From positions 1-64,000 of IMG/VR virus record IMGVR_UViG_3300014205_000212: a stretch of 64,000 bases of DNA. The stretch is one strand, 5' to 3'. The stretch is from a virus. Taxonomy: Duplodnaviria > Caudoviricetes. A program made the position numbers and the translations under genes. The notes beneath the pieces were generated by a model, which made no database searches, was not told the DNA's origin, and was given only the letters and a program-made list of their open reading frames with translations. Of this stretch, positions 12,175 through 34,148 are shown one piece after another (the first letter of the stretch is position 1; each line of letters starts with the position of its first letter).

Positions 12175-12293
12175 TAAACCGAAGGGAACTGTTAATTGAT
12201 TTTTCTATGAAAAGAAATAAAGCACCTGAAGAATTTAAGGCGCAATATGAGAAAGAAGTTGATGACTACTTAAAATCAATTAATAGTTTATAA
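12033..12293 (+). CDS. Cassette hypothetical protein (starts inside the A0 loop; stop is the TAA of TAAC)
   Basis: 86-aa ORF crossing GTTA in frame (NAVLPHVINR). Confidence 0.7.
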   Translation: MNKKEKRIQIIAMLYQNMDKVDADETLKLIDEFSTMAVINNAVLPHVINRRELLIDFSMKRNKAPEEFKAQYEKEVDDYLKSINSL

Positions 12294-12414
12294 CGGTTAC
12301 AAATATGAAACGGCAGGGATTACGTGCAAAACCCTATCAGCCGACTACAAATGATGAATAGTAGCACAAAGTATAAAATAAGCATTACGCCCTGCTGTTT
12401 TATATTTGATGTTA
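12291..12414 (+). repeat. attC-like hairpin A1 (124 bp)
   Basis: TAAC-GGTTA-CAAATATGAAACGGCAGGG...CCCTGCTGTTTTATATTTG-AT-GTTA; 19-bp stem with 2 G.T. Confidence 0.9.
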
Positions 12415-12435
12415 TGGTGCGTTTATTTTACTAAC

Positions 12436-12663
12436 ATGGTTGATTTTAACGGATTAGACACAAAAAAAAATGCTGTAAAACTTCAAGTAAAAACAGCAAC
12501 GATATTTATTTGGAAAGAAAGTAACTTAACTGCCCTTATTTCTGTTAGAGATAAAGATGGCAAAGCATTATGGCAAAAGGCGCATTGTGATGCTTCTGAC
12601 TTACCATTTGCTATTGAAGTTGCTAACAGAAATATACAGACTGGTATGTTTGAAACGGATTAA
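12436..12663 (+). CDS. Cassette hypothetical protein
   Basis: 75 aa from ATG 12436 within body 12411-12675. Confidence 0.65.
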   Translation: MVDFNGLDTKKNAVKLQVKTATIFIWKESNLTALISVRDKDGKALWQKAHCDASDLPFAIEVANRNIQTGMFETD

Positions 12664-12671
12664 ATGCACCA

Positions 12672-12759
12672 TAACGGTCGGCAATATGAAACGGTTGCCT
12701 TGTAAGACGTTTCAAATTTAGTAATAGCCTATCGGCAACTGTTTTTATATTGCTTGTTA
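12672..12759 (+). repeat. attC-like hairpin A2 (88 bp)
   Basis: GCAATATGAAACGGTTGCC/GGCAACTGTTTTTATATTGC. Confidence 0.9.
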
Positions 12760-12780
12760 GGCACAGTTAAATTTAAAACC

Positions 12781-12951
12781 ATGAAAAGAATAACTATTTG
12801 GTTAATGAAGCGCCAACTAAAAGCAGCAAAAAATTATCGTAATAATTTAGATAATAGTATTGTAATTAAAGCATATGACTACGTTATAAAGAATTACGAA
12901 GATACAATAATGTTTTTGCGTGCTGAACTTAAATCGAAGGCACGGTCTTAA
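12781..12951 (+). CDS. Cassette hypothetical protein
   Basis: 56 aa from ATG 12781 within body 12756-12962. Confidence 0.6.
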   Translation: MKRITIWLMKRQLKAAKNYRNNLDNSIVIKAYDYVIKNYEDTIMFLRAELKSKARS

Positions 12952-12958
12952 TTATGCC

Positions 12959-13084
12959 TAACGTTGATAATATGAAAAGTTGGGGGATTAAAAGAGCAAA
13001 AATATCGGGTCGCAACCGAAGCCTTGACGGTAGCTGGGAGGTAACATACACCGCTGCACCCCCAATTTTTTATATTATGTGTTA
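12959..13084 (+). repeat. attC-like hairpin A3 (126 bp)
   Basis: ATAATATGAAAAGTTGGGGG/CCCCCAATTTTTTATATTAT; 20-bp stem with 2 G.T. Confidence 0.9.
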
Positions 13085-13123
13085 GCAACTGGGCTTTATT
13101 TATAAACTTAAAACTAAATAAAA

Positions 13124-13330
13124 ATGGAAGTAAATGATTTAATAGACCTTAGATTCACTTCATCTACTAAGGGACCCATTCCTATCTCAAGAACTATAGA
13201 TGGGAAATTTGCCCTTATTAATGGAACATTCAGAGGTATAATTGACATAGGCTCTACTTGGAAATGTAGAATAGATAAAATAGAAAAGTTTAAAGTTATA
13301 ATAAGTCCAATATCATTACAGAAATTATAA
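13124..13330 (+). CDS. Hypothetical protein (TRAM-like beta-barrel possible)
   Basis: 68-aa ORF; PISRTIDGKFALI...GSTWKCRI...VII. Confidence 0.55.
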   Translation: MEVNDLIDLRFTSSTKGPIPISRTIDGKFALINGTFRGIIDIGSTWKCRIDKIEKFKVIISPISLQKL

Positions 13331-13354
13331 TAATAATTAATAAATTTCAATATT

Positions 13355-13747
13355 ATGGAAACAAAAAACAATGTATTAGTCGTTCTTAAATCTAAGTTAG
13401 ACTATAAAGAAAACAAATCAAATACAAGAGAGTTTACAAAAGAAGAGATAACTTTACTAAGAGAGTACTGTATCTCTTTAGATTACCATTTTTCAATTAA
13501 TAAGCAAAACAAGATAGTTAAGATATTCAATCCTATTACATTTAAATATGGATACCTTAAAGTTCTTAATAATGAGATATGCTATGGCTATTTCGTTAAA
13601 GAGAACGATAATTCTAAATTTATTGTAAAATATAATGTTCTCTTAGAGTTAAATAACTTTAAAAAAATAAAAGGTTATAATATAAGAGTAAATAGAATGA
13701 TCCAATCTGTTATGTTTGGTATATATGACTTAGAAATTTTAAAATAA
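13355..13747 (+). CDS. Hypothetical protein
   Basis: 130-aa ORF. Confidence 0.65.
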   Translation: METKNNVLVVLKSKLDYKENKSNTREFTKEEITLLREYCISLDYHFSINKQNKIVKIFNPITFKYGYLKVLNNEICYGYFVKENDNSKFIVKYNVLLELNNFKKIKGYNIRVNRMIQSVMFGIYDLEILK

Positions 13748-13755
13748 ATAGAATA

Positions 13756-14145
13756 ATGAAAAGAGATATTGATTGGAAAGGATTTCAAGAAAATGTAGAA
13801 ACCTATATTAAAAAAAATAGAGGCATAGGTGCAAAGTTTTTAAAAATATTATTCGATAATTATTCTACAAAGGGTATAAAAAATTTGAATATACAAAAAA
13901 CTGTAAAAAGTGATTTAGGTATTATTAGCGATAATACTTCTAACTTAGAAAATATTTTAGGAATGCTACACGAATTTAGGAATTGGAATAGGGAATGGGA
14001 TATTTACTTTGCAAAACACCCTAAAAATGTTGATGAGTTTGCAAAATTATTGTCAAAAAGATACAAAGTTAAACGTGTTAACGTTAATTATAAAAAATCG
14101 GTGAGGAGTTCGGAGCTACGGAACTATCAACTGATACAAAACTAA
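13756..14145 (+). CDS. Hypothetical protein reading into hairpin B0
   Basis: 129-aa ORF; the last ~22 codons are the left arm/loop of B0. Confidence 0.6.
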   Translation: MKRDIDWKGFQENVETYIKKNRGIGAKFLKILFDNYSTKGIKNLNIQKTVKSDLGIISDNTSNLENILGMLHEFRNWNREWDIYFAKHPKNVDEFAKLLSKRYKVKRVNVNYKKSVRSSELRNYQLIQN

Positions 14146-14203
14146 TTTAGTAGCAAGTGGTTTAAAATAAGCACGATACCCCACTGTTTTTTATAATGTG
14201 TTA
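14079..14203 (+). repeat. attC-like hairpin B0 (125 bp)
   Basis: TAAC-GTTA-ATTATAAAAAATCGGTGAGG...CCCCACTGTTTTTTATAAT-GT-GTTA. Confidence 0.8.
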
Positions 14204-14252
14204 TCGGCTGCCTTTTTAAAATTTAATTATTCACTTAAAAACTTAAATAACA

Positions 14253-14585
14253 ATGGAACAAATTAGAAATTCAGACCTTATCGAAGGTAAGACTATTGAA
14301 AGAACGGATTATTTAGATAATAAATTCTTTCTATTTTTTACAGACAATACCTTTTGTATAATATCAGGTTGTGGCTGGGATGAAAAAGATGTTGAATTTA
14401 ATGAAAATGAATTTGAAGTTGAACCTAATACAAGCAACTACGATGATCTTAAAAGTATTGGAATTATTGATGAAGCTACCTTCTTTAAATTTAAAGATCT
14501 TAAAGAACAAAATAGCAAAGAGTATAGAAAGCAACAAGACATTAAACAACTTAATGAATTACGCAAAAAGTATCCAGATGCGTAA
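14253..14585 (+). CDS. Cassette hypothetical protein
   Basis: 110-aa ORF after GTTATCGGCTG. Confidence 0.7.
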   Translation: MEQIRNSDLIEGKTIERTDYLDNKFFLFFTDNTFCIISGCGWDEKDVEFNENEFEVEPNTSNYDDLKSIGIIDEATFFKFKDLKEQNSKEYRKQQDIKQLNELRKKYPDA

Positions 14586-14666
14586 GGTTGCCGTATTAAA
14601 TACGAGAAATAAAATTTCAATTTACAACAAAACTACACGGGCAAAATGGCGTATGAGCCCGTGTTA
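14578..14666 (+). repeat. attC-like site B1, outer left arm deleted
   Basis: Remnant GATGCGTAAGGTTGCC; intact right arm GGCAAAATGGCGTATGAGCCCGTGTTA. Confidence 0.6.
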
Positions 14667-14701
14667 GCAGTTGTTTTTATTAATCTAAATATAAATTTAT
14701 T

Positions 14702-15079
14702 ATGAAATACGAAATTAAATATAAAGAACTTGAAAGTTATTTAACTTCTTTACCTGAAAAAGAATTTCAGGACAAAAAATATAATCCAAACGGAATTATT
14801 AAAGAGGCAGAATTGATGACAGATATTGACTTTTTTAAAAAAGATAAATCGAAATTCCCAATAAGTAAAGTTATTGATTACGGAATGCCATTTTTACTTG
14901 ATGCTTTAGGCAATGATTTATCTATATGTATTTTAACTAAAAGAAAATTTAAGCTACCAACTGGAAGACCAATACAAGCTAAATTAGACCGTACAATTAT
15001 ATCAAATTGTCGAAAAATATATGGAACACCTTTGAATGGATGCTGGGTAATACCTGAGCAGTTCGTGGTTTTAAAATAA
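14702..15079 (+). CDS. Cassette hypothetical protein
   Basis: 125-aa ORF filling body 14663-15087. Confidence 0.75.
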   Translation: MKYEIKYKELESYLTSLPEKEFQDKKYNPNGIIKEAELMTDIDFFKKDKSKFPISKVIDYGMPFLLDALGNDLSICILTKRKFKLPTGRPIQAKLDRTIISNCRKIYGTPLNGCWVIPEQFVVLK

Positions 15080-15083
15080 CTGC

Positions 15084-15207
15084 TAACCGTTGAAGCTATG
15101 ACCAGTAAAGGATTACGGAGCGATGCACTATCCACCGATACTAAGCTGGATGCGAGCTACAACGTTTGATTAACCACCACAACCTTTATTGGTTATAGCT
15201 TGTGTTA
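15084..15207 (+). repeat. attC-like hairpin B2 (124 bp)
   Basis: AAGCTATGACCAGTAAAGG/CCTTTATTGGTTATAGCTT; 2 G.T. Confidence 0.9.
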
Positions 15208-15253
15208 GTGCCAGTTATTTATTTGATTATCAATTTTTAAAAACAAAAATACA

Positions 15254-15820
15254 ATGAAGAAAATTAGCACACTTTACAAAAAAGACCCGAACGATTTAAG
15301 CAGGGTAATTAATGAAATTGCACCCGAAAATAAATGGGTAATTGATGGCGAAGGTATTCCGACACGCAAGTTTGATGGAACTGCAACCGCTATTATTGAT
15401 GGCGAATTATACAAACGATACGATGTTAAAAAAGGTAAGCAAGTGCCACTAAATGCGATACCATGCCAAGAGGCTGACGAAATTACAGGACACCACCCGC
15501 ATTGGATTAAATGCGACCGAAACAACCCAGCTGATAAATGGCATTTTGTTGGTTTTGATGCCTTAGAAAATAAAGAAGATGGAACTTATGAACTTTGTGG
15601 CGAAAAATTACAAGGCAACCCAGAACATTTAACTGGACACATTTTAGTTAAACACGGAATAGAAGTATTACCAGTAACCGACTTTTCATTTGAAGGAATA
15701 AAAAACTACTTATCAAATTCTGAATTAGATATTGAGGGTATTGTTTTTCATCATAAAAACGATGGGCGTATGTGCAAAATTCGCAAATGCGATTTCGGTA
15801 TCAAGCGGGCTGTTTTATAA
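15254..15820 (+). CDS. Cassette-borne RNA ligase-like nucleotidyltransferase (DUF5565/RLIG1-like)
   Basis: Motif I TRKFDGT, YELCG, motif IV EGIVFHH, motif V CKIR. Confidence 0.7.
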   Translation: MKKISTLYKKDPNDLSRVINEIAPENKWVIDGEGIPTRKFDGTATAIIDGELYKRYDVKKGKQVPLNAIPCQEADEITGHHPHWIKCDRNNPADKWHFVGFDALENKEDGTYELCGEKLQGNPEHLTGHILVKHGIEVLPVTDFSFEGIKNYLSNSELDIEGIVFHHKNDGRMCKIRKCDFGIKRAVL

Positions 15821-15827
15821 TTGGCAC

Positions 15828-15951
15828 TAACGGATTATATATGCGTTCGGTTGCTGACGCAAAACAGCACCAACTTAATTTAAAAAACAAAAGTAAAATG
15901 AAAGCACAAGACAACAAAAAAGAGAAAGCAACTGACGTATATACGTTGTTA
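15828..15951 (+). repeat. attC-like hairpin B3 (124 bp) containing a start codon
   Basis: TATATGCGTTCGGTTGCT/AGCAACTGACGTATATA; ATG at 15898 in the loop. Confidence 0.9.
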
Positions 15952-16107
15952 CCTGCCGTTTTAGATGAGATCATTGAATACATTGAAGATACTGAACAAA
16001 CCATTGATGGTGAATGGGGTTCGTGTAGAGACTTGAAAGAGTTGATTAGAGATAAACAAATGCCTGAATTATATGATAAGTTAATTGCTTTGAGAAATGG
16101 CAGGTAA
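15898..16107 (+). CDS. Cassette hypothetical protein (starts in the B3 loop; stop is the TAA of TAAC)
   Basis: 69 aa, MKAQDNKKEKATDVYTLLPAVLDE... Confidence 0.7.
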   Translation: MKAQDNKKEKATDVYTLLPAVLDEIIEYIEDTEQTIDGEWGSCRDLKELIRDKQMPELYDKLIALRNGR

Positions 16108-16141
16108 CTCACTTATATATACAGTTCAAAATATTGAAGTA
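16105..16141 (-). other. attI-like array-terminal site T1
   Basis: + strand TAACTCACTTATATATACAGTTCAAAATATTGAAGTA; homologous to T2 and T3. Confidence 0.7.
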
Positions 16142-16392
16142 TGCCAAAACTAATAGAATCGGTAGATATAAAAAATAGAATAATAGAACTGATTAATAAT
16201 AATAATTTATTTATTAATGATGAACTTCAAATTTTTGAAGCACTTATTAATAAATATAAACCTATATCCATTTCTAATTGTTCTAATCTTTTAGGAAAAA
16301 AATATAACTCTATAAAGTATATGGTTAACCATAATTCTTTACCTTTTATTTCTATTAATAATAGTAAACATATTTTAAAATCTTTAATATAA
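16141..16392 (+). CDS. Small HTH protein (excisionase/MerR-like HTH suspected)
   Basis: ISISNCSNLLGKKYNSIKYMVNHNSLPFISINNSKHIL. Confidence 0.5.
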   Translation: MPKLIESVDIKNRIIELINNNNLFINDELQIFEALINKYKPISISNCSNLLGKKYNSIKYMVNHNSLPFISINNSKHILKSLI

Positions 16393-16396
16393 TTAT

Positions 16397-16858
16397 ATGG
16401 AAATTTTAAATTTAATTTTGATAGGAGTAATATCAAGTGGTATTACTCTTATGTATCAAAGAGGATTTTTTCCGGGAATGATATTTCATTCTTGGTTTAG
16501 ATGGTTAATAATGACAAAGTATGAAATATTAGCTAAAATATTAGGCAAATGTCATTATTGTAATGGATTCTGGATAAATATTATTATAACCTTTTTATTT
16601 ACTCATAACTGGCTTTATTTCATCATAACTTCAGGTTCTTGGTATTTATGTACAGTTATCGTTTCTAATGTAATAGAATGTATTTATGTGCCAATAATAT
16701 ATAAATCAGCCTTAGATTGGTGGAACAGTTTAAATATATTCGAAAAAAGTAATTTAACTGAAAAATATAAAATTAATGTTCCTGATAATGGATTAAAAGG
16801 AATAAATCAATATATAATACAAGGAATAGCAAATAAAGAAAAAATATTAATAAAATAA
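16397..16858 (+). CDS. Membrane protein, DUF1360-like
   Basis: Hydrophobic helices and LGKCHYCNGFW. Confidence 0.55.
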   Translation: MEILNLILIGVISSGITLMYQRGFFPGMIFHSWFRWLIMTKYEILAKILGKCHYCNGFWINIIITFLFTHNWLYFIITSGSWYLCTVIVSNVIECIYVPIIYKSALDWWNSLNIFEKSNLTEKYKINVPDNGLKGINQYIIQGIANKEKILIK

Positions 16859-16877
16859 TAATATAATTAATTTAATT

Positions 16878-17159
16878 ATGAATTACGAAGAATATTTACA
16901 AAAAGGGAAAGAACTCGAATCAGAATTTGAGAATAAGAAAACAGAATTAATGAAAGAATTTGTAAAGGCAAATAATCCTTATAAAATTGGTGACAAAATA
17001 ACAGACCATATTGGCTCAATAATTATTGAAAAAATGGGGTTTGCGTGGGGTTTCGGTAATAAGCCATGTGCCACATATACAGGTTTAGAACTTAAAAAAG
17101 ATGGCACTCCAACTAAAAAAGAATCACGTAGACAAGTGTGGCAGTCAAATATTGTCTAA
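16878..17159 (+). CDS. Hypothetical protein, probable eroded cassette gene
   Basis: 93 aa; stop is the TAA of TAAC at site C0. Confidence 0.7.
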   Translation: MNYEEYLQKGKELESEFENKKTELMKEFVKANNPYKIGDKITDHIGSIIIEKMGFAWGFGNKPCATYTGLELKKDGTPTKKESRRQVWQSNIV

Positions 17160-17168
17160 CATATGTTA
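17157..17168 (+). repeat. Collapsed attC-like site C0
   Basis: TAAC-ATAT-GTTA: both boxes present with the interior deleted, followed by CCGCCAG like other body starts. Confidence 0.6.
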
Positions 17169-17207
17169 CCGCCAGTTTTTATTTATTAATCTTAATATCA
17201 AAACTAT

Positions 17208-17813
17208 ATGAAATCATGGAAAGAACCTACAAAAGAAAGATGGGGAATGGATTATCGTCCCGGAATTACAGAAGAATTTTCACAACTAATTAAATTAGCT
17301 AAAGAAAAGATTGAGCCATTTTCATATAAAGAAATTTCAAGATATACTTATTACTTTAAAGTAAAAGGTGAGGAAATTTCGAGTGAATTTGATTGCTGCG
17401 ATGATGAAAAATGTATCAAAGAAGCCAAAAAAGCTATAAGAAAACAATACGGGAAAAATACGCATATTGAAGAATGTTATTCGGATAATGACGAAGACCA
17501 TGAGAGTATTGAAATATGTAGTATTTGTGGAAAACCTATGAATGAATATCTTACTTGGTGTAATTCAGAATTAGAGTACTTAGAAGAAAATAAACCTTGG
17601 GACGCTCAATTTTTAGCTGATGAAGGTTTTGTAATTGGCGTTATTTTAGATAGTACTCCAACTATGGATTGTAATATTTCAGATTATGCAAAATATCAAA
17701 AAGGCGAAACACTTCAAAAGGCATTACAATCAAGAGAAGAATTTTTTCAAAGAATCGGTAAATTAGCTCAATCAGTAATTGATGCAGACTTCGCTGTCTT
17801 AAATGGACGGTAA
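17208..17813 (+). CDS. Cassette hypothetical protein (acidic, Cys motifs)
   Basis: 201 aa; stop is the TAA of TAAC. Confidence 0.8.
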   Translation: MKSWKEPTKERWGMDYRPGITEEFSQLIKLAKEKIEPFSYKEISRYTYYFKVKGEEISSEFDCCDDEKCIKEAKKAIRKQYGKNTHIEECYSDNDEDHESIEICSICGKPMNEYLTWCNSELEYLEENKPWDAQFLADEGFVIGVILDSTPTMDCNISDYAKYQKGETLQKALQSREEFFQRIGKLAQSVIDADFAVLNGR

Positions 17814-17934
17814 CGGTGAAGCTATGACCAGTAAAGGAATGCGGGCTTCGTGCCTGTCAAAATAGTAGAAACTTAATAGAAAATACAAAATGAAAATTAA
17901 CGCAGAAACCCCCAATTGCATAAACATATTGTTA
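17811..17934 (+). repeat. Chimeric attC-like site C1 (124 bp)
   Basis: Left arm shares 21 identical bp with B2; right arm CCCCCAATTGCATAAACATATTGTTA is not its complement. Confidence 0.75.
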
Positions 17935-18360: not shown

Positions 18361-18393
18361 CATATAATTTATTTATATGTGCATAAAAAGTAA

Positions 18394-20060: not shown

Positions 20061-20464
20061 TAGAAGAAGAAGCATTAGAAGAAATAATAAAGTTAGCAAA
20101 TGGTACATCAGACCCTGCTACAATAAAGGCTTATTATAAACAACAATTCTTTAATGGAAAGAAGATGCTATTTGATGGTACTATCATTACAGCACTACTT
20201 ATATTAGAAAAATACAAGGCTTACACAGATTATTGGGATTCTTCATTTGGAAATAAAAATCCTCAATATATAAAATCTGTAGATAAAAAAATGTCTATTT
20301 CTGATTTCTTAGTAAAAGGAGAATATAATAAAACATTTATTCTTCCGGCAAGAAATAGAGATATATATCTATTTGGTACTAATAGTCTTAATGAACTTAA
20401 AGTAAAATTAATTAATTTTAATAAAAGACTTAATGAAAGAAAGAACACTTCCCGAGGGAACTAA
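20057..20464 (+). CDS. Hypothetical protein upstream of the helicase
   Basis: 135-aa ORF overlapping both neighbours. Confidence 0.7.
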   Translation: MIEEEALEEIIKLANGTSDPATIKAYYKQQFFNGKKMLFDGTIITALLILEKYKAYTDYWDSSFGNKNPQYIKSVDKKMSISDFLVKGEYNKTFILPARNRDIYLFGTNSLNELKVKLINFNKRLNERKNTSRGN

Positions 20465-21815
20465 AATACCACCTCATGATTTAAGAATAGAAGAAACTAT
20501 ATTAGGTCAGTTAATGATAGAAGTAAATAAAAATACTATTAATGCTATTAGCATCATTAATGAAGATGATTTTTATAAAGAATCACATAAATTAATTTAT
20601 AGAACAATATCTTTATTATATAAACGAGATAATGTTTGTAATTTCATTATTGTATGTCATGAATTAATGAAGATTCAAGCATTAGAAATAGTAGGTGGTA
20701 GTTATATTATAAGTACTTTATCTTCTAATGTATCTTCTACTTTAAATGTTATTTATCATGCAAGAATTCTTAAACAGTTATCAATTGCTAGAAAATTAAT
20801 TGCTATTTCATATAATGTTCAAACTTCTGTATATGAAATGAAAGATGTAAAAGAGATAATAGATACTTTAAATAAAGACATTAATAATATCTATAAAGAT
20901 GTTGATAAAGAAGATTCTATTGTCTTAGCTTCTAAAGTATCTGATGAATTAATGAAAGATTTATTAAATGATAATTTTGTATTAAATAAAAAGAATACAG
21001 GATTTAAAATTTTAGATAAAATAATTGGTATTACATTAAATAAAATATTATTAGTTGCTGGTCCTGCAAAACATGGGAAAAGTAAGTTTATAAGTATGAT
21101 AATGATGAATATTTTAGAAAAATATTCTGATGTAAGTATATTTTGGATTACATTAGAAGATTCTGCTAAAGATATCATTGCCGGTTATATTGCTTCTAAA
21201 ATTTTAATTACTCCTAAAGACATCATTGAAAGAACATATTCTAAAGACTGTAATTCTATTATTAAACCTCATATAGAGAAGTTTAAAACCTTTGATATAG
21301 AATTCCAAGAAAAAAGTGCTAAAGTGTCTCAATTTGGCATTAAATTCATTGAATTCTGTAAAATGCGAAAAGGAAGATTTAATATTTTAATAATTGATAA
21401 TATGCTTTCATTATCTGATAAAGATGATTTTAAAGGTAATGATAATGGAATGTATGATTATATTATGCTTCAGTTATTAAATATTAAACAAAGGACTAAT
21501 GCTTTAATAATTCCTATTCATCATTATAGAGATGCTCAACAAGCAGAAGGAAAGATAGAAAGTGCATATAGACCAAGATTAATAGACATGAAAGGAACAG
21601 AAGCTTTTAGAAGAGTTCCTAATCAAGTATTACTATTAAATAATCCGGGAAAATATAAAGATTTAGTTATAGAATATAAAGGTCATAAAGACTTACTAAA
21701 GAGTATCTTTATATGTGATACTGGTGCTAATAGGAATGCTTCCGATGATGATGATAGTGCTTTAATAAGATTCTTTCACACACTAGAATTTAATATTTTT
21801 GAAGAAATAAATTAA
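20433..21815 (+). CDS. dnaB: DnaB-like replicative helicase
   Basis: N-terminal PPHDLRIEETILGQLM...EDDFYKESHKLIY, Walker A AGPAKHGKS, LIIDN, RPRLIDMKGT. Confidence 0.9.
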   Translation: MKERTLPEGTKIPPHDLRIEETILGQLMIEVNKNTINAISIINEDDFYKESHKLIYRTISLLYKRDNVCNFIIVCHELMKIQALEIVGGSYIISTLSSNVSSTLNVIYHARILKQLSIARKLIAISYNVQTSVYEMKDVKEIIDTLNKDINNIYKDVDKEDSIVLASKVSDELMKDLLNDNFVLNKKNTGFKILDKIIGITLNKILLVAGPAKHGKSKFISMIMMNILEKYSDVSIFWITLEDSAKDIIAGYIASKILITPKDIIERTYSKDCNSIIKPHIEKFKTFDIEFQEKSAKVSQFGIKFIEFCKMRKGRFNILIIDNMLSLSDKDDFKGNDNGMYDYIMLQLLNIKQRTNALIIPIHHYRDAQQAEGKIESAYRPRLIDMKGTEAFRRVPNQVLLLNNPGKYKDLVIEYKGHKDLLKSIFICDTGANRNASDDDDSALIRFFHTLEFNIFEEIN

Positions 21816-21839
21816 CGGTGAGCGTATGAAATCGTGTTA
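21813..21839 (+). repeat. Collapsed attC-like site D0 (27 bp)
   Basis: TAACGGTGAGCGTATGAAATC-GT-GTTA: left arm start joined to the last bases of a right arm. Confidence 0.7.
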
Positions 21840-22238: not shown

Positions 22239-22444
22239 TAACGGCTGCGGGTGTGACATCGGTTTTTTTGCGGATTAACAACTAAAATTTAAAAATATGG
22301 TACAGATAGTAGAACAGACAAAGGAAGAAAAAATGGCAATGTATATGAAATTGTCTAAGAAGCAAATAGCAGAAATGCTTATTAATTGCAATAACATTAT
22401 AACAGCACTAACGCAAGCAAAAAACTGTGTTATACCTGCTGTTA
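22239..22444 (+). repeat. attC-like hairpin D1 (206 bp; loop encodes ~40 codons)
   Basis: GCGGGTGTGACATCGGTTTTTT/AAAAAACTGTGTTATACCTGC; 4 G.T. Confidence 0.85.
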
Positions 22445-22542
22445 TGGGTGAGTTAACTTGCGATAGTTGCGGTTGCCATCCAAATACAATATATCAAACA
22501 AGCAAGGGTCGGTTTTGTGAACGGTGCAATCCAGCAAGTTAA
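22297..22542 (+). CDS. Cassette zinc-finger-like protein (starts in the D1 loop)
   Basis: 81 aa; CDSC...CERC. Confidence 0.7.
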   Translation: MVQIVEQTKEEKMAMYMKLSKKQIAEMLINCNNIITALTQAKNCVIPAVMGELTCDSCGCHPNTIYQTSKGRFCERCNPAS

Positions 22543-22549: not shown

Positions 22550-22671
22550 TAATGGCTGCGGGTTTGAAATGTAAGGGATTTCAGAACGCTTCCGTATCAC
22601 ACGAGATAAATTAACTTAGTAGTAACCAGCTTTACAACAGATAAAACCCTTATATTTTAAACCCGTTGTTA
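22550..22671 (+). repeat. attC-like hairpin D2 (122 bp; TAAT variant)
   Basis: CGGGTTTGAAATGTAAGGG/CCCTTATATTTTAAACCCG; 2 G.T. Confidence 0.88.
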
Positions 22672-22689
22672 GGCACAGTACGGTAAATT

Positions 22690-22854
22690 ATGATACAATA
22701 TAAAACGAAGCAATTAATTCAAGTTCCTTGTAAAAATAAACTTACAGGTAGCATTGAAACATTTGAGATAATGGCTTATGATTTTTCAGATGCTAAAAAG
22801 GAACTTGAATGGGTTTTAGATTTACGATGGATAATTGGTTATGGTTCAATGTAG
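22690..22854 (+). CDS. Cassette hypothetical protein (54 aa)
   Basis: Below the track cut-off; MIQYKTKQLIQVPCKNK...GYGSM; fills body 22668-22867. Confidence 0.65.
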   Translation: MIQYKTKQLIQVPCKNKLTGSIETFEIMAYDFSDAKKELEWVLDLRWIIGYGSM

Positions 22855-22863
22855 TATTGTGCC

Positions 22864-22988
22864 TAACGGTTCGTGTATGACCCGTTTGGGATTAAATAGT
22901 ACAAACTTTCAAAATGGAACAAATGAATATAAATGACTTAGACTTTCAGCAAACTACCGAACCCCAAATGGGTTATGACACGGTGTTA
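22864..22988 (+). repeat. attC-like hairpin D3 (125 bp) containing a start codon
   Basis: CGTGTATGACCCGTTTGGG/CCCAAATGGGTTATGACACG; one bulged G on the 3' arm. Confidence 0.88.
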
Positions 22989-23156
22989 TCGGCAGGTATT
23001 TGTGATACTTGTTCTATTCCTAAAATGATGAATACAGGCGATGGTATAAATGAACCATCTGACCCTATTCTTTATTGTCATAAAATGAAACGTGAAATAT
23101 GTCCAGAACCACCAGAGGATAGGATGGTCGAATGTCGGTTTTATACTTGCCGATAA
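22914..23156 (+). CDS. Cassette Cys-rich protein (starts in the D3 loop; stop is the TAA of TAAC)
   Basis: 80 aa; CDTC...C...C...C. Confidence 0.7.
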   Translation: MEQMNINDLDFQQTTEPQMGYDTVLSAGICDTCSIPKMMNTGDGINEPSDPILYCHKMKREICPEPPEDRMVECRFYTCR

Positions 23157-23190
23157 CTCGTTTATATGTATAGTTCAAAAAAATGAAGTA
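23154..23190 (-). other. attI-like array-terminal site T2
   Basis: + strand TAACTCGTTTATATGTATAGTTCAAAAAAATGAAGTA; partial inverted partner at 23242-23258. Confidence 0.75.
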
Positions 23191-28018: not shown

Positions 28019-28031
28019 GTTATTTAACTTT

Positions 28032-28068: not shown

Positions 28069-28080
28069 TAAATTAAAATT

Positions 28081-28338
28081 ATGCCTACAAGTATATTCAT
28101 AGAAAGTTTAACTAAAAGAAATATTTTAGTTAAAAACGGTAGAGAAGATTTAATATTTCATGTTGGTTCAAGTTCTAAAAATACACATAAATTTATTTCT
28201 ATATCTATTAAAGAAAAAATAATTGGAAACAATAAACATTTCTATTTTTATTTAGATGGAATATTAAAAAAAGAATCAGTTTGGGAATGTAAAAATAATA
28301 GAGCAACAATTCATATAATAGATATAAATCATGTATAA
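28081..28338 (+). CDS. Hypothetical protein
   Basis: 85 aa in a run of overlapping small ORFs. Confidence 0.6.
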   Translation: MPTSIFIESLTKRNILVKNGREDLIFHVGSSSKNTHKFISISIKEKIIGNNKHFYFYLDGILKKESVWECKNNRATIHIIDINHV

Positions 28339-28534
28339 AAGATTTGCAATAATTGACGATTATGGAACAATACATTCTAGTACCGAAGAAGAAATGAGAT
28401 TAGCAATTACTGCCATGACAGATTCTGATTCTTTAGTAGGCACTAAAAGTGATATATTAAAATTAAAAGCTAAATATTATTCTCCTTGGGTTGGAGATTT
28501 AAAATTAGTAGAAATTCATAAATTATATAAATAA
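28331..28534 (+). CDS. Hypothetical protein
   Basis: 67 aa, coupled to neighbours. Confidence 0.6.
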   Translation: MYKRFAIIDDYGTIHSSTEEEMRLAITAMTDSDSLVGTKSDILKLKAKYYSPWVGDLKLVEIHKLYK

Positions 28535-28737
28535 TGAAAAAAAGAATAACTAAAGAAGATAATAATACATTAGATAATGTAGAAAAGCCACTTTGGAAAG
28601 ATATAGATGGGAAACCTGTATTGCCTATGAATCATAAAAAGATTTGTGCTAATGCTACTTGGGATTACATTATTGTCTATTTTGATCTTAAAAAATCTCC
28701 TGAAGTATTTAATATTTCTAAACCTAAAAATAAATGA
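28534..28737 (+). CDS. Hypothetical protein
   Basis: 67 aa, TAATG coupling. Confidence 0.6.
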   Translation: MKKRITKEDNNTLDNVEKPLWKDIDGKPVLPMNHKKICANATWDYIIVYFDLKKSPEVFNISKPKNK

Positions 28738-28976
28738 AAACATTTTATTATACAAGAAATCAAAAAGAAGGACATAGTGGATATATAGTTACATTAGAAA
28801 TTTATAAAATAGAGAAAAAAATACCATATCATTTATGTTCTCACACTTTTAATACTGCATCTACAAGAGGAGAAGAATCAGAAGTATTTAATGGATTAGC
28901 AAAAAATGGTTTTCTTCCAAAGAAATATCAAGATAAGTATGCTAGAGAAATTCCACATAAAGCTTATAGATTATGA
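28734..28976 (+). CDS. Hypothetical protein
   Basis: 80 aa, ATGA coupling. Confidence 0.6.
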   Translation: MKTFYYTRNQKEGHSGYIVTLEIYKIEKKIPYHLCSHTFNTASTRGEESEVFNGLAKNGFLPKKYQDKYAREIPHKAYRL

Positions 28977-29221
28977 AATATTACAATAATAAAGGAGCAT
29001 TAGTAGATAGTCATAATGGAGATGCATTATTTATATTAATAGAATTAGAAAATAATTCTTTTATGTCAGTAGAATATAGTTCTGAAGATTATCCTTCGAC
29101 AACAATATTATTCTATAAAAATTTAAAAGAAGTAAAAGAATCATTAAAAAATAATCCGGAATGGATATTAAATGGTATTAAAAATATAAAATTAAAGAAA
29201 TGGTTAAAATCAATCCAGTAG
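28973..29221 (+). CDS. Hypothetical protein
   Basis: 82 aa, ATGA coupling. Confidence 0.6.
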   Translation: MKYYNNKGALVDSHNGDALFILIELENNSFMSVEYSSEDYPSTTILFYKNLKEVKESLKNNPEWILNGIKNIKLKKWLKSIQ

Positions 29222-29418
29222 AAGTTGCAAGTGTATTAGCTACAAATGCAACTTTTGATGAAGTAAAAGTTAATCCTGCAAATAATGTACAGGAAGAAGA
29301 TGATATGTATGAAGAAATAAGTAAAAATGAATATAGATTTAAAGGTATTTTTCAAAATATATTTAATATTCATTATGATTATTATTATAATATTTTAATT
29401 GCCCATAATTATGAATAA
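29200..29418 (+). CDS. Hypothetical protein
   Basis: 72 aa. Confidence 0.6.
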   Translation: MVKINPVEVASVLATNATFDEVKVNPANNVQEEDDMYEEISKNEYRFKGIFQNIFNIHYDYYYNILIAHNYE

Positions 29419-29501
29419 TTCTAAATTTTAAATAGTAATTAATTGTATAGAATAAATATCTTATTTTAAAAGAATTGTTTGTTTAATTAAATAATTGTCA
29501 T

Positions 29502-30122
29502 ATGAAAATGTTAAAAGAAATAGCTGAAAATTATTCAGCACTAAATTACAACTCTGATAACTATTTTATAGGAGGAGGTTTAGATGGCTCAAAATTCGCT
29601 TCTAATCGGCACGAGGATGCACGTAATGATTCAGGAAAGCTTACACTTGGGGAATTAACTGCACTTCTCAAGAAGGTCACAAAAATAGACATAGATGTTA
29701 TAAAGTCTGTAATTAATTACGCAGTGCCTAACATGGAATGGCATCATGCCGGGAAATTGCCAAAACAATACGGTGGAGGCATGAAGAAGACATATTTTTT
29801 AAATGCAAAAGAAATTTGTGATATTGCAACTAATTTCGAAGATTATAAAAATAAAGTTGAAATTGCAATTGTTACTAAAAAGGCTGAGGCAGAGGCACAA
29901 AATACATTAGTCCAACGTCAATTAGACTACCTTAAAGGAAATGCCACTAAATTTAGCAGAGTGTCAAATTTACCTCAATTTTACACAATTACTGAAAGCG
30001 AAATGAACGGTAAATATGGGTGGTTTGATGCTTCCGGAAAGTCGTATAGTTTACCGATATATTACTCCGGTTGGGAATTTAAAAATCAAGAAGATTTAAA
30101 TAACTATCACTTAATTCGTTAA
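29502..30122 (+). CDS. Hypothetical protein (GC-richer than flanks)
   Basis: 206-aa ORF with EWHHAG motif. Confidence 0.75.
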   Translation: MKMLKEIAENYSALNYNSDNYFIGGGLDGSKFASNRHEDARNDSGKLTLGELTALLKKVTKIDIDVIKSVINYAVPNMEWHHAGKLPKQYGGGMKKTYFLNAKEICDIATNFEDYKNKVEIAIVTKKAEAEAQNTLVQRQLDYLKGNATKFSRVSNLPQFYTITESEMNGKYGWFDASGKSYSLPIYYSGWEFKNQEDLNNYHLIR

Positions 30123-30283
30123 TATGAAAGTTACTGTGACTTATATCAAAGTAATCAAGAAAGTTATAAAAGCGAAAGACAACGCAGAACTTTTAATACT
30201 TATTGATGAAAAGTGCCCTAAAGGTTATATTTTACAAAAATTTTAATTTTATAATTTAGTAATAATTTTTAAAACGAAATAAA

Positions 30284-30724
30284 ATGAAAAATACTATTGA
30301 TAAATTAAAATTGAAAAAATATCATTCTAAAATAATAAAAGCTAAAATAATAACTAGTAAAAATGCATACGATTATATTAGACAGTTTTACTTTGATGAT
30401 ATAGATATTTATGAAAGTGTTTTTATATTACTCATAGATGCCTCTAATACAACAATAGGATATGCTAAAATAAGTCAAGGAGGAGTTATAGGAACAGTTA
30501 TAGATGTTAAGTTAATATGTAAATATGTTATAGATAGTTTAGCGATGGGAGTTATATTAGCTCATAACCATCCTACAGGTAACCTTAAAGCAAGTGATTC
30601 TGATATGCAAATAACATCTAAAGTAAAAGATGCTTTAAATATCTTTGATTGTAAATTATTAGATCATATTATACTTAGTTCTAATAAATATTTATCCATG
30701 GCAGATGAAGGAATTTTAATTTAA
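30284..30724 (+). CDS. RadC-like JAB/MPN domain protein
   Basis: ESVFILL...ISQGGVIGTVID...AHNHPTG...SDSD...LLDHII. Confidence 0.9.
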   Translation: MKNTIDKLKLKKYHSKIIKAKIITSKNAYDYIRQFYFDDIDIYESVFILLIDASNTTIGYAKISQGGVIGTVIDVKLICKYVIDSLAMGVILAHNHPTGNLKASDSDMQITSKVKDALNIFDCKLLDHIILSSNKYLSMADEGILI

Positions 30725-30730
30725 AATATT

Positions 30731-30958
30731 ATGAAAAATAAATATGTTTATTATATAATGGAAACTGATATATGGCAATCAAATTATTCAGAAACTCTAT
30801 TTGGTATTTATGATGATTATGATATAACTTTTAAAGAGTTTAATAAATTATCAGAATTTTATAATAAAGAAAATATTAATGGAGATATTATTATGTATTA
30901 TACTATTATAAATCAAAAACATGAATCTATAAAAATTATGTCTAAATCTGGTAATTAA
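30731..30958 (+). CDS. Hypothetical protein
   Basis: 75 aa. Confidence 0.6.
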   Translation: MKNKYVYYIMETDIWQSNYSETLFGIYDDYDITFKEFNKLSEFYNKENINGDIIMYYTIINQKHESIKIMSKSGN

Positions 30959-31188
30959 TGAATAAAGAAGAAAAAGAATTATTTATAAATAATTTTATAA
31001 ATAGTATAAAAGAAGATTTATTATCTAAATTAGATTCTATTCCTGAAAATTGGGATGGATTTGAATTAAGACATTATATTAATATTAAATTCGAACAAGA
31101 AAATTTATGGAAAAGAAAAATATTAAGTAATACAGATAAAATAAGAAAACAAAGATGTCTTAATGATATTTATAATAATGGGTTGTAG
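30958..31188 (+). CDS. Hypothetical protein
   Basis: 76 aa, TAATG coupling. Confidence 0.6.
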   Translation: MNKEEKELFINNFINSIKEDLLSKLDSIPENWDGFELRHYINIKFEQENLWKRKILSNTDKIRKQRCLNDIYNNGL

Positions 31189-31393
31189 TGTATTAAATTG
31201 GAGTAGGGAGTTACATAATAAAAAAGTAACTCCTGACCGTAATGATGGTAAAATAACAGTTAAAATACCAAATGGATATATCACATTTTCCACTGAAGAA
31301 GAAAAACAAGATTGGCTTAAAAGATATTTAAATAAACAAATTGTTGAAAATAAACCTTTAAAATTTAATCGTTATAAAAAAAGAAATAAATGA
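31163..31393 (+). CDS. Hypothetical protein (start uncertain)
   Basis: 76 aa. Confidence 0.5.
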   Translation: MIFIIMGCSVLNWSRELHNKKVTPDRNDGKITVKIPNGYITFSTEEEKQDWLKRYLNKQIVENKPLKFNRYKKRNK

Positions 31394-31815
31394 AAGCAGA
31401 AGAATATAAAGACATTTTAAATCATTATATGTATCGTTTTAAATTAGAACATACAGATGAATATCATAATTATATAAAATTAAAATATTTCTATACAAAA
31501 AATTCAGAAATTACAGTAGATAATATTATAAAACTTGTATGTGAAGGAGAGAAAGTAGATATAGAAGATATGAAAAGAACCGGAAGAAATAGAAATTTAA
31601 ATATTCAACCTAGACAAATAGCTTCTTATCTTATTACTAAACACATTAAAGGACTTACATTAGAATCAATAGGTAAAGCTTTAAGAAATGAACCTTTAGA
31701 TCATGCAACAGTTATTCATGCTAATAAAACTATTAATAATCTTATAGATACAGATAAGAGAATGAAAAATAAATTAATTCATTATGAAGACATCATTAAA
31801 GCTTGGAAAGAATGA
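31390..31815 (+). CDS. Protein with DnaA C-terminal (domain IV) HTH
   Basis: RQIASYL...TLESIGKAL...DHATVIHANKTI matches the DnaA domain IV signature. Confidence 0.8.
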   Translation: MKAEEYKDILNHYMYRFKLEHTDEYHNYIKLKYFYTKNSEITVDNIIKLVCEGEKVDIEDMKRTGRNRNLNIQPRQIASYLITKHIKGLTLESIGKALRNEPLDHATVIHANKTINNLIDTDKRMKNKLIHYEDIIKAWKE

Positions 31816-32468
31816 CAGAGATAGAAAAGTTCTTTAAAGATACATATGTTAGAAATACACCTATAATAGAATATCTAAGAGAAGCTACAAGAAATAAATT
31901 AGCATATTTTATTCCTCTTAATACACCATCATTAAAAAATAGTAAACAGATACAACAGATATTTACTAAGAATTCTACTTGCTGTCATTCTAGAGGTGGA
32001 TTGGTTATTAAAACATCTACAGGAGGATTAATTTGTTCTCATTGTCAACAACCTTGTGGAAGACATACAAGACCTATTTTAAATGCTTCAGATGGCGTAC
32101 AGGAATATGAAAAAAATATATTACCTTTTGTAAATGTCTTTAAAGGTATATTTAAAGAATGGAAAGTAGGAAAGACAGAACCTTTAGTTATGTGTTTTTA
32201 TTTTATAAGAAACCAATATAGAGATTTTGATTATGGAAACGCTTCTGAGGTACTTTTAGATATGTTTAAAGACCAAACTGATAAGAAGACTAAAGAAGTT
32301 ATACCGAGATTAATTACTGATGATTGTATGCGTTTTGTAAAACCTTTCTTTCTAGGTTGTCATTATTCACAAGATAAACCTGGTACTATCATTACTTTAC
32401 TTACAAAAGAACTACTTGAAATATATAGTAAAGTATATTTAGATTATAAACCTAATACATTATTCTAA
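31803..32468 (+). CDS. RusA-like Holliday junction resolvase with a zinc-ribbon insertion
   Basis: IPLNTPSLKNSK, FYFIR...DFDYGN...DM...ITDD; inserted CC...CSHC. Confidence 0.6.
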   Translation: MERMTEIEKFFKDTYVRNTPIIEYLREATRNKLAYFIPLNTPSLKNSKQIQQIFTKNSTCCHSRGGLVIKTSTGGLICSHCQQPCGRHTRPILNASDGVQEYEKNILPFVNVFKGIFKEWKVGKTEPLVMCFYFIRNQYRDFDYGNASEVLLDMFKDQTDKKTKEVIPRLITDDCMRFVKPFFLGCHYSQDKPGTIITLLTKELLEIYSKVYLDYKPNTLF

Positions 32469-32740
32469 TGAAAACATATAAACCAATAACTAAAAAAATA
32501 ATAATAGATATATTAACCGATGTAGAACATTATAATCAAAGTCCATTAAATTTAATAATTAATGGATATAATATTGATGAAAATATCACTTGTAGAAAAA
32601 TATGTGTTAAAAAAGGTAGAATAGAATATTTCTATTATAAAGATTCTCCTGAAAGTATGGAAAGATTTAAAATGTTACTTAACCAAATATTAAATAGAAA
32701 TGAAAAAAGTAAGTATAGTAATAGTATCAAGAATGTATAA
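32468..32740 (+). CDS. Hypothetical protein
   Basis: 90 aa. Confidence 0.6.
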   Translation: MKTYKPITKKIIIDILTDVEHYNQSPLNLIINGYNIDENITCRKICVKKGRIEYFYYKDSPESMERFKMLLNQILNRNEKSKYSNSIKNV

Positions 32741-32888
32741 TGTAATACATGAAGATGATTTATCTGAAACAGGAATATTAAGATTAGCAGAAAACAACTT
32801 TGATAATGAAATTAACCTATTAACTTCTAATTTAGAAGATGGTGATTTTGCTTATGAAATAAAAAGTACTAACGATTATAAAGTTTGA
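32700..32888 (+). CDS. Hypothetical protein
   Basis: 62 aa. Confidence 0.55.
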   Translation: MKKVSIVIVSRMYNVIHEDDLSETGILRLAENNFDNEINLLTSNLEDGDFAYEIKSTNDYKV

Positions 32889-32889
32889 T

Positions 32890-33225
32890 ATGGAACAGTC
32901 ATTTATAGAAAAAAGAATTGCAAGTAAAGCAACTGAAAGAGTAGATAAAGATTATAGAGAATTTATAGATTTTTGTAATAAAAATCCTTTTGCTAAACAA
33001 ATACAAATTAAAGTAAATAATATAAATATTTTTTTAACTGGTAATAATTATAATAATCAAGAATTATTTTCTCCTCATAATACAAATAATAAAAATAATG
33101 ATTTTACCAACTATATAGATATATTCAATAAGCTTCAAAAAAAATATGAAAAAGAAGAAACAGAAATTTTACTTGATAAATTAGATAGTGTAAAATATTT
33201 ATTTGATAACTTAAATAACATATAA
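32890..33225 (+). CDS. Hypothetical protein
   Basis: 111 aa. Confidence 0.65.
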   Translation: MEQSFIEKRIASKATERVDKDYREFIDFCNKNPFAKQIQIKVNNINIFLTGNNYNNQELFSPHNTNNKNNDFTNYIDIFNKLQKKYEKEETEILLDKLDSVKYLFDNLNNI

Positions 33226-33230
33226 TTAAT

Positions 33231-33596
33231 ATGCAAAAACATACAGAAATATATTTAAATCATTTTCATCTTCATCAAGGAGAAGTTATAGTAAGTGAGA
33301 TATCCGGAACTACCAATGGTATAAACATTCATCATTTAGATTCTAAAAAGATGGGTGGTAGTGATACTAAAGATTATATAGAGAATCTATGTGCTATTAC
33401 CATTACAGAACATGAGTTATGCCATAGATATAAAGAATATAATGAATATGTAAAGAAGATACATGAATTATTCTTAACTATTAATCCTTATTCTTATCCT
33501 CATCTCTTTCTTGATAATACAATTTATAAAAAATATCAAAAAGATTTATATCAGATACTTAAAGAATGTGGACATTATAAAAAATATAGTAAATGA
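33231..33596 (+). CDS. HNH endonuclease-like protein
   Basis: NIHHLDSKKMGG...IENLCAITITEHELCH. Confidence 0.7.
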   Translation: MQKHTEIYLNHFHLHQGEVIVSEISGTTNGINIHHLDSKKMGGSDTKDYIENLCAITITEHELCHRYKEYNEYVKKIHELFLTINPYSYPHLFLDNTIYKKYQKDLYQILKECGHYKKYSK

Positions 33597-33611
33597 ATAT
33601 AGATAATAATG

Positions 33612-33739
33612 TAACGGCTGGCGGTATGCGGTCGTTGCCGAACTATCAAATTAGTAATAACTTAAATACGAGAACAAAATTATGAATACAGAAAAAAGTA
33701 TCAACGAAGCGGAAGGCAATGCCGTATTACCGCTTGTTA
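33612..33739 (+). repeat. attC-like hairpin E0 (128 bp) containing a start codon
   Basis: GCGGTATGCGGTCGTTGCC/GGCAATGCCGTATTACCGC; ATG at 33682. Confidence 0.85.
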
Positions 33740-34050
33740 CCACCCGTTTTTTATTGCTCAGTCTGAAATGGACTAACAAAAAAGATAAGTGGTTTACGTT
33801 TTGGCGTGAAAATTCAGCAGGGTATTGCTGGTTCAAAGAATGGTGTGGACTTTATGATATTGAAAAAGCAAGAGAAACGCACGGACACGACAATACTATT
33901 ATGGTTGATGGATTCCTTATTAAACACCTTTGGAAAGAAATTGAATACGAAGGTAAAAAACGTGAAATACTTCCAAATACGGAAGAGGTGCGTAAATTTT
34001 TATCTATTCAACTTCGAGATTTAAAAGCATTGCACCGCACTACTCATTAA
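33682..34050 (+). CDS. Cassette hypothetical protein (starts in the E0 loop)
   Basis: 122 aa, MNTEKSINEAEGNAVLPLVTTRF... Confidence 0.75.
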   Translation: MNTEKSINEAEGNAVLPLVTTRFLLLSLKWTNKKDKWFTFWRENSAGYCWFKEWCGLYDIEKARETHGHDNTIMVDGFLIKHLWKEIEYEGKKREILPNTEEVRKFLSIQLRDLKALHRTTH

Positions 34051-34058
34051 ATGGGTGG

Positions 34059-34148
34059 TAACGTTTTGCGTATATACGAGGTACGCCTTAACGATGAATT
34101 TTAAATTACAACAAACGCTTATAGGCGTATCTTGTATATACGCTGTTA
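34059..34148 (+). repeat. attC-like hairpin E1 (90 bp)
   Basis: GCGTATATACGAGGTACGCCT/AGGCGTATCTTGTATATACGC; 21-bp stem with 2 G.T. Confidence 0.9.

Follow-up and report, generated by a model that had tools for sequence, protein, structure and literature searches.

The DNA considered here, referred to below as the window, is the first 64 kb of a linear 74,106-bp virus record (IMG/VR IMGVR_UViG_3300014205_000212; Caudoviricetes), estimated by CheckV to be about 39% complete. The window has a guanine-cytosine (GC) content of about 25%, and the genes between 8 and 36 kb lie on the + strand, including a DnaB helicase gene at 20433-21815; few recognisable families are found among these backbone genes. 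Between them lie short runs of small, GC-richer genes, separated by imperfect hairpins of 88-206 nt that are bounded by TAAC...GTTA and are numbered here S1 to S12. A first-pass annotation of the same DNA had described strand-polarised mismatches in these hairpins over 12291-34148, a range that indeed starts with the TAAC of S1 and stops with the GTTA of S12, the last full site, and had proposed that the + strand is the folded substrate of a recombination resembling that of integron cassettes at their attC sites. Having followed this up, we estimate with a probability of roughly 0.7 that the TAAC...GTTA hairpins are integron-type sites, that the strand carrying the G·T wobbles (the + strand here) is the one folded and cut at TAA|C, and that the phage genes lie on this wobble strand.

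The polarity was re-examined by aligning each 5′ arm to the reverse complement of its own 3′ arm, with both transition classes scored equally. Five sites (S1, S3, S5, S10 and S12) have exactly two non-Watson-Crick stem positions each, and every one of them is a G in the 5′ arm facing a T in the 3′ arm on the + strand, so that the ten G·T and zero C·A positions previously counted in five stems were obtained again by an unbiased procedure; the same is true for the four additional G·T pairs reported in a longer hairpin, here S8 (22239-22444). When the core stems of all window sites are pooled, 17 G·T stand against 2 A·C, and both A·C lie in doubtful columns at the inner end of the stem. The wobbles are confined to conserved columns, at about +12 to +16 and +17 to +20 nt after TAAC. 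The pattern is not a product of chance, yet it does not amount to ten independent mutations.

Relatives of these sites were collected by using the RNA-ligase-like cassette protein encoded at 15254-15820 as a query, which retrieved 49 viral loci, and later searches added more. To orient the relatives we relied on an independent criterion, the 5-nt spacer beside TAAC and the 1-3 nt beside GTTA. Across 63 unique sites from 21 contigs, G in the 5′ arm opposite T in the 3′ arm was counted 107 times and the reverse arrangement 6 times, along with 8 A·C and 22 C·A (binomial p = 1.6e-12). Since 14 of the 22 C·A fall at a single fixed position (+10) in a subfamily, the absence of C·A is true of the window and not of the family as a whole. 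The spacer asymmetry amounts to 4-6 nt next to TAAC against 1-3 nt next to GTTA, and most sites are 86-131 nt long, the shortest measuring 56 and the longest 206 nt. In an alignment of 38 phage sites (A1), TAAC and GTTA are invariant in 38 of 38, while bacterial members of the family carry (T/C)AAC and GTT(A/G). One pair of this alignment, at columns 28/131, is G·U in 35 of the 38 sites and G-C in none. The stem covaries, with a score of 0.481 against 0.138 in shuffled alignments and 196 cells changed on both sides against 64 in the shuffles.

The two strands do not fold equally well. Under DNA parameters the mean free-energy difference (ΔΔG, + minus −) is -2.06 kcal/mol in the window, the + strand being the more stable in 9 of 11 sites, and -1.94 kcal/mol in 55 relatives, where the + strand is favoured 49 times (Wilcoxon p = 4e-9); RNA parameters give -6.5 kcal/mol. 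Free folding of all AAC...GTT pairs had little sensitivity, since minimum-energy folds seldom pair the terminal boxes, and constrained folding and an anchored arm aligner took its place. In true attC sites the recombined bottom strand is 2.12 kcal/mol more stable and holds 1.24 G:T mispairs compared with 0.39 on the other strand (Nivina 2016, PMC5027507). The premise that one attC strand folds better and is the recombined one is thus established in the literature, the effect in our sites is of the same size, and the comparison of both strands, which had been suggested as a check, supports the proposal that the + strand is the folded substrate.

A covariance model built from the A1 phage sites, termed R1, finds 11 sites in the window, which form five short arrays; all are on the + strand and six were outside the training set, whereas the reverse strand gives at most about 16 bits. 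Rfam 15 gave no match at E <= 1 over 11000-36000. Outside the phages, R1 matches 71 of 151 genomes sampled evenly across Bacteroidota (47%; E <= 1e-6), and these include arrays with 10-45 sites, such as the approximately 45 sites of 86 nt at a spacing of about 500 nt in Flaviaesturariibacter amylovorans; matches were also obtained in a Lutibacter metagenome-assembled genome. An isolate of Flavobacterium pectinovorum (L111, G006:C3:147000-166999) carries an array in its chromosome, flanked by era/der on one side and by an M13 peptidase gene on the other. This array holds about nine cassettes with R1 sites (TPR, DUF4844 and unknowns) and no recombinase within 20 kb, and resembles the clusters of attC sites lacking an integron-integrase (CALINs). 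The phage cassette proteins had no cassette in common with the bacterial array loci examined. Much of what characterises attC sites is found in this family: AAC...GTT boxes at the foot of an imperfect hairpin (57-141 nt), a stem that covaries so that structure is kept over sequence, flanks that pair across the cassette (in the window and in the bacterial arrays L122, L123 and L130), and a more stable strand that is richer in G:T (about -2 kcal/mol; 113 G·T against 30 A·C), the recombined strand being suggested by array polarity. Provided that its sites are counted as attC-type, the record itself contains CALINs, since these are defined by at least two such sites with no integrase nearby. The system is to be regarded as a variant of the integron theme and not as a separate kind.

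Gene orientation differs between the two settings in which the sites occur. In bacterial arrays the genes lie opposite the wobble strand in 52 of 64 intervals and on the same strand in 12, whereas 35 of the 36 intervals in phage-type contigs have their genes on the wobble strand and one has them opposite it. The earlier statement that the phage genes are inverted relative to the classical cassette convention is borne out by these counts. The wobble columns and the 5/2 spacer asymmetry are unchanged between bacteria and phages. As the site features stay fixed while gene orientation flips, the polarity follows recombination and not transcription, and selection on an RNA hairpin, formerly considered equally compatible with the polarity, is now disfavoured.

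The ends of the arrays carry a polarity of their own. Read along the wobble strand, the bacterial arrays L122, L123 and L130 have a bare TAAC at the end nearest the integrase, and the sequence flanking this TAAC pairs with that flanking the GTTA of the last hairpin, a G·T at +11 being part of the pairing. Three phage arrays end in a bare TAAC followed by a conserved AT-rich site and show the same polarity, so that asymmetric ends are present in three phage and three bacterial arrays. The bare integrase-proximal ends together with the flank pairing lead to a unit of the form [C-hairpin-GTTA...TAA]. Population variants were sought in Logan unitigs from the groundwater and landfill metagenomes that contain the phage, where 30-nt flanks are found as expected from k = 31. 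A junction 12289->12671, seen in both metagenomes, represents a variant without exactly 12290-12670 (S1 and its gene), with 8 nt (ATAACGGT) shared, and a junction 22549->22864, seen in one run, a variant without exactly 22550-22863 (S9 and its gene), with only TAA shared. Two viral loci, L004 and L034, have exactly TAAC-hairpin-ligase-TAAC in common, and compared with L001 the window has one additional unit, S6 and its gene, between the ligase cassette and the terminal site. The two variants, the L004/L034 unit, the additional S6 unit and the bare-TAAC ends all support a left-hand crossover at TAA|C and a mobile unit in which the hairpin precedes the gene. Another pair of loci, L057 and L058, which are 98% identical and differ by two cassettes, was set aside as not site-specific, its junction being at the start codon inside the hairpin loop.

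Six bacterial arrays (L121, L122, L123, G133, G022 and G020) have a tyrosine recombinase at one end, always on the strand opposite the wobble strand and with its 3′ end towards the array; beside the Lutibacter array L121 it is encoded at 6459-7649. The best model for this recombinase is NF040815 ("XerA/integron integrase"), at 205-248 bits, and its closest PDB entries are XerA and then IntI4. The 74-kb record encodes no tyrosine recombinase (PF00589). No phage-encoded enzyme was found in the DNA searched, the tyrosine recombinase, Y1 HUH, serine recombinase and GIY-YIG families all being absent from it. Elements of the IS200/IS605 or REP/RAYT kind were likewise rejected, given that PF01797 is absent from five array-bearing phage records and that the bacterial arrays adjoin tyrosine recombinases. 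With no recombinase in the record or in three complete array-bearing phages, the enzyme acting on the phage sites is probably encoded by the host.

These observations can be assembled into the following scheme. A site consists of a 4-bp box pair, an unpaired spacer that measures about 5 nt on the TAAC side and 1-3 nt on the GTTA side, and a stem of about 19 bp, which covaries and keeps one near-invariant and one frequent wobble of the G(5′ arm)·T(3′ arm) type. The wobble strand would be the equivalent of the integron bottom strand, folding as single-stranded DNA and being cut on its 5′ arm at TAA|C by a XerA/IntI-like tyrosine recombinase, so that the mobile unit would be [C-hairpin-GTTA-gene-TAA]. 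New units would enter at the bare TAAC that precedes the conserved AT-rich site of the phage, the latter acting as an attI. In bacteria the order is gene then site, with the genes on the other strand, and in phages site then gene, with the gene start possibly inside the site; for the reaction itself the phage would probably use the recombinase of its host.

Several findings weigh against this scheme. Hairpins of the S11 type are joined in frame at GTTA to at least four different gene bodies, and in L058-L062 the homology of these hairpins breaks exactly at both TAAC and GTTA. A ligase unit of 89-91% identity is preceded by three unrelated hairpins in the window, L001 and L067, which have only the GTTA..TAAC ligase unit in common; L078 and L034 have the same hairpin followed by different genes, and an S5-type arm is followed by a different flank in the metagenome. 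The − strand folds too, at -10 to -18 kcal/mol. The surplus unpaired bases lie in the 5′-arm spacer of the wobble strand (5 against 1-3 nt), that is on the arm assigned to the cut, and thus not on the L″ arm (the 3′ arm of the bottom strand) where attC sites carry their extrahelical bases, a single extra base on the 3′ arm being seen in some 86-nt bacterial sites. The array-end recombinases score 183-199 bits against TIGR02249, for which the cut-off is 265, and leave the IntI-specific segment (model positions 180-239) unaligned, so the arrays do not qualify as complete integrons. In the 74-kb record and three CheckV-complete array-bearing phage genomes PF00589, PF01797, PF00239 and PF01541 are absent, and an all-against-all blastp of four array-bearing phages showed that they have only cassettes in common. 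Lastly, P12002L_attC1 of Polaribacter phage P12002L, a mini member of the TAAC...GTTA family predicted by HattCI only and the single member with an experimental test, was not recombined by the class 1 integrase IntI1 (PMC9892861) and is the sole site on which IntI1 failed.

The junctions at GTTA and the folding of the − strand are the reason why we regard the left-hand crossover as predominant and not exclusive; crossover mapping in polymorphic relatives therefore upheld the TAAC-to-TAAC unit as the common one, while right-hand GTTA junctions occur as well. Taken further, the same observations would fit a system in which both boxes are crossover points and there is no strict strand choice, TAAC..GTTA hairpin modules and GTTA..TAAC gene modules assorting independently through processing of either folded strand, or of an extruded cruciform, with the wobbles merely biasing the choice. 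This we consider unlikely, though it is the most serious of the alternatives, and genuine attC sites are known to recombine through their top strand as well, at a lower frequency (PMC9892861). Among the closest relatives, namely the two population variants, the indels run from TAAC to TAAC; bare TAAC occurs only at the integrase or terminal-site end of the three bacterial and three phage arrays; and without a preferred strand it is difficult to account for an asymmetry of wobbles and spacers that is conserved from bacteria to phages. On the reading with a preferred strand, the hairpin swaps may have arisen when a unit was excised on the less favoured strand and then re-inserted on the favoured one.

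An origin of the polarity in the phage mRNA is improbable: here hairpins selected for processing, stability or translational control would tolerate G·U, and the DNA cassette pattern would be secondary. The co-orientation of phage sites with transcription in 35 of 36 intervals is what this would predict, as are a flipped site in L015 that sits among minus-strand genes, the start codons in several loops and the larger stability gap under RNA parameters. It is at odds with the bacterial arrays, whose wobble strand is antisense to the genes in most intervals with columns and spacers unchanged; the sites match no Rfam family, and an RNA function leaves the bare-TAAC ends, the TAAC-to-TAAC indels and the complementarity of flanks across a gene unexplained. 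Among the runs listed as containing this DNA, none is of RNA. Least probable by far is a mutational footprint, in which G-C pairs become G·T through C-to-T deamination of whichever strand is single-stranded more often, as might be imagined from the positive GC skew of the + strand over 8-36 kb. Deamination would be expected on both arms, yet the two arrangements stand at 107 against 6, and the wobbles keep to fixed columns, one of which is G·U in 35 of 38 sites taken from unrelated contigs, next to pairs that covary freely. Given this arm asymmetry and column fixity, mutation bias cannot be the source. Two further candidates, MITE-like (miniature inverted-repeat transposable element) insertion and homologous shuffling of the T4 type, were dropped since they explain neither the cross-gene flank pairing and bare-TAAC ends nor the link to a recombinase.

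Comparison with integron attC sites shows likeness in the AAC/GTT boxes at the foot of a hairpin of about 50-200 nt, the unpaired spacer, the covarying stem, the pairing of box flanks across the cassette, the strand with more G:T and about 2 kcal/mol of extra stability, and arrays that begin at a non-hairpin site beside a tyrosine recombinase. The differences are that one G·T is near-invariant here instead of being a statistical excess, that the extra unpaired bases are on the arm of the presumed cut and not on the opposite arm, that the flank pairing is longer (about 6-10 bp plus the G·T at +11), that the associated recombinase is nearer to XerA than to IntI and below the integron-integrase cut-off, and that the phage genes lie on the strand thought to be recombined and often start inside the site. 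In integrons of the Treponema denticola type the integrase is transcribed in the cassette direction. Such co-directional integrons (T. denticola type; Chlorobi/Ignavibacteriae/Salinibacter) resemble our bacterial arrays, in which the recombinase is upstream of and co-oriented with the cassette genes and has its 3′ end towards the array, but their integrases pass the IntI models and the recombinases found here do not. The promoter-early stem-loops (PeSLs) of T4-type phages flank small genes in hyperplastic regions and are thought to act by homologous recombination between conserved promoter/stem-loop copies. They too bracket small accessory phage genes that are shuffled among related phages, whereas the stems described here vary from site to site and covary, carry TAAC/GTTA boxes, and have bacterial copies beside a tyrosine recombinase.

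CALINs have been published from virulent phages including P12002L (Qi et al. 2023, PMC9892861), and they resemble the present arrays in that lytic phage genomes carry attC-type sites in clusters and no integrase accompanies them. That study differs in reporting no conserved wobble, no gene inversion, no genomes with several small arrays closed by a phage site and no link to chromosomal arrays of Bacteroidota, and only two predicted sites in "divergent directions" were given for P12002L. R1 finds several family members in this phage, co-oriented with the genes. Family sites at 38035-38090, 38879-38936 and 39122-39245 of P12002L (L126) bracket the DNA methyltransferase gene gp54 and others lie near gp35/gp36, so that they outnumber the two reported in the literature. 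Surveys with IntegronFinder recovered almost no integrons or CALINs from Bacteroidetes (PMC9024848), and in the open-access literature we found no description of this site family, of an invariant wobble or of inverted phage cassettes.

The choice of strand, which sets the orientation and hence the expression of a cassette, is a central matter in integron biology. A single site family occurring in both gene orientations, classical in bacterial chromosomes and inverted in phages, therefore offers a natural experiment that separates the polarity of recombination from that of transcription. The arrays also suggest a route by which lytic phages without a recombinase of their own might exchange accessory genes through the enzyme of the host, and they point to Bacteroidota as a large reservoir of cassette arrays that has apparently gone unnoticed. 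It is tempting, although we would put the odds at somewhat below even, to see in this a phylum-wide and uncatalogued integron-like system of Bacteroidota, with a XerA/IntI-like recombinase and 86-/125-nt sites with an invariant G·T that standard integron finders largely miss, which diverse virulent phages of Bacteroidota tap via inverted cassettes, an attI-like phage site and the host enzyme in order to shuffle early genes.

The sites of the window, all on the + strand, can now be described in order. S1 (12291-12414; 124 nt, R1 87.8 bits, 2 G·T) is the first of array A, and its TAA is the stop codon of the backbone gene 12033-12293; the near-invariant wobble is G22·T106 in this site. It is followed by the short S2 (12672-12759; 88 nt, 33.9 bits, 2 G·T), which has a 77%-identical copy in L003, and by S3 (12959-13084; 126 nt, 72.4 bits, 2 G·T). 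In metagenome contigs the stem of S3 is also found with a 38-nt loop in place of the 78-nt loop (joint 12983->13062), and the size classes of about 86 and about 125 nt may be interconvertible through such loop replacement. The long class carries a conserved loop motif, GGATTA after the stem and CTATC..GATAC..TAGTAGCA. S4 (14079-14203; 125 nt) scores 68.7 bits on the + strand and 16.4 on the − strand and has one G·T plus one ambiguous column. A possible degenerate site, TAAG...GTTA at 14583-14666, was read from the sequence and is not found by R1. S5 (15084-15207; 74.7 bits, 2 G·T) lies upstream of the ligase-like cassette, and homology to L001 and L067 begins only at its GTTA. In S6 (15828-15951; 54.3 bits, outside the training set, 2 G·T) the loop holds the start codon of the gene 15898-16107. 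The array is closed by a bare TAAC and AT-rich terminal site at 16105-16141, the positional equivalent of attI, located by a motif search that returned 5 matches where 0.04 were expected.

Between two cassettes further on, a mini site TAACATATGTTA at 17157-17168, read from the sequence, is probably the remnant of a hairpin deletion. S7 (17811-17934; 48.7 bits) has a 5′ arm that is a near-duplicate of that of S5 and a 3′ arm that matches poorly. Right after the stop codon of DnaB, a truncated site at 21813-21839 begins an array that is absent from the backbone relatives. A search of GenBank phages and IMG/VR with the DnaB of the window gave matches below 25% identity or none, and as it fell short, the relatives of this backbone (L051-L056) were obtained from a protein collection; they have no array between DnaB and an AAA_23 gene. 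The array itself contains S8 (206 nt), the loop of which includes the 5′ part of the gene 22297-22542, then S9 (22550-22671; 55.3 bits), where TAAT replaces TAAC, and S10 (22864-22988; 84.9 bits, 2 G·T), whose loop and 3′ arm encode the N-terminus of the gene 22914-23156, the arm-encoded residues being retained in a homologue in L064. It ends in a bare TAAC and terminal site at 23154-23190, again found by motif search. Flank pairing between a cassette start and the next site is seen in the window as GTTATGGTGCGTTT/AAATGCACCATAAC, GTTAGTGCCAG/TTGGCACTAAC and GTTAGCACCAG/TTGGTGCTAAC.

The last array comprises S11 (33612-33739; 59.1 bits), which contains a start codon and 19 codons, S12 (34059-34148; 90 nt, 53.7 bits), the last full hairpin, with 2 G·T spaced 3 nt apart, and a bare TAAC and terminal site at 34440-34476 with an inverted copy at 34539-34558. 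S11 is approximately 95% identical in five other phage contigs with differing upstream and downstream flanks. Its first 19 codons (MNTEKSINEAEGNAVLPLV), spread over the loop and 3′ arm, are found again in seven other viral loci (L057-L063), where they are 88-100% identical and fused in frame at GTTA to unrelated protein bodies; a site of this type appears to be a portable module of start codon and N-terminus. Of the terminal-site copies in the window, two are followed after 60-80 nt by an inverted partner. All three (16105-16141, 23154-23190 and 34440-34476) resemble a motif repeated before many genes of the unrelated phage L001 (4368-6620; AACAGTTTAAAATATTAAAC...TTAGTATAAACTTAA), and the terminal site may double as a phage promoter or operator; the exact terminal-site 20-mer was not found in IMG/VR.

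When the backbone and cassette proteins were compared with PHROGs and Pfam, almost nothing matched. Immediately upstream of the last array, the open reading frame 33231-33596 looks like an HNH endonuclease by eye, from its HH...N...H...CH pattern. The − strand of 45963-62507 is occupied by one open reading frame of 5514 amino acids and then one of 1387, neither with a PHROG match among those tested. The product of 15254-15820 is a protein of 188 amino acids with a weak match to the RNA ligase RLIG1 (E = 4e-6). Its relatives come from 49 IMG/VR contigs and 23 genomes, the latter all Bacteroidota, and hairpin arrays are present at only about one fifth of these loci, so the gene is a cassette in some places and an ordinary gene in others. 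In both metagenomes the summed contig depth over 12688-13081 (S2/S3) and 15052-15445 (S5) is 3-4x the phage baseline and contigs break inside hairpins, from which it follows that near-identical hairpin sequences are present in other genomes of the same communities.

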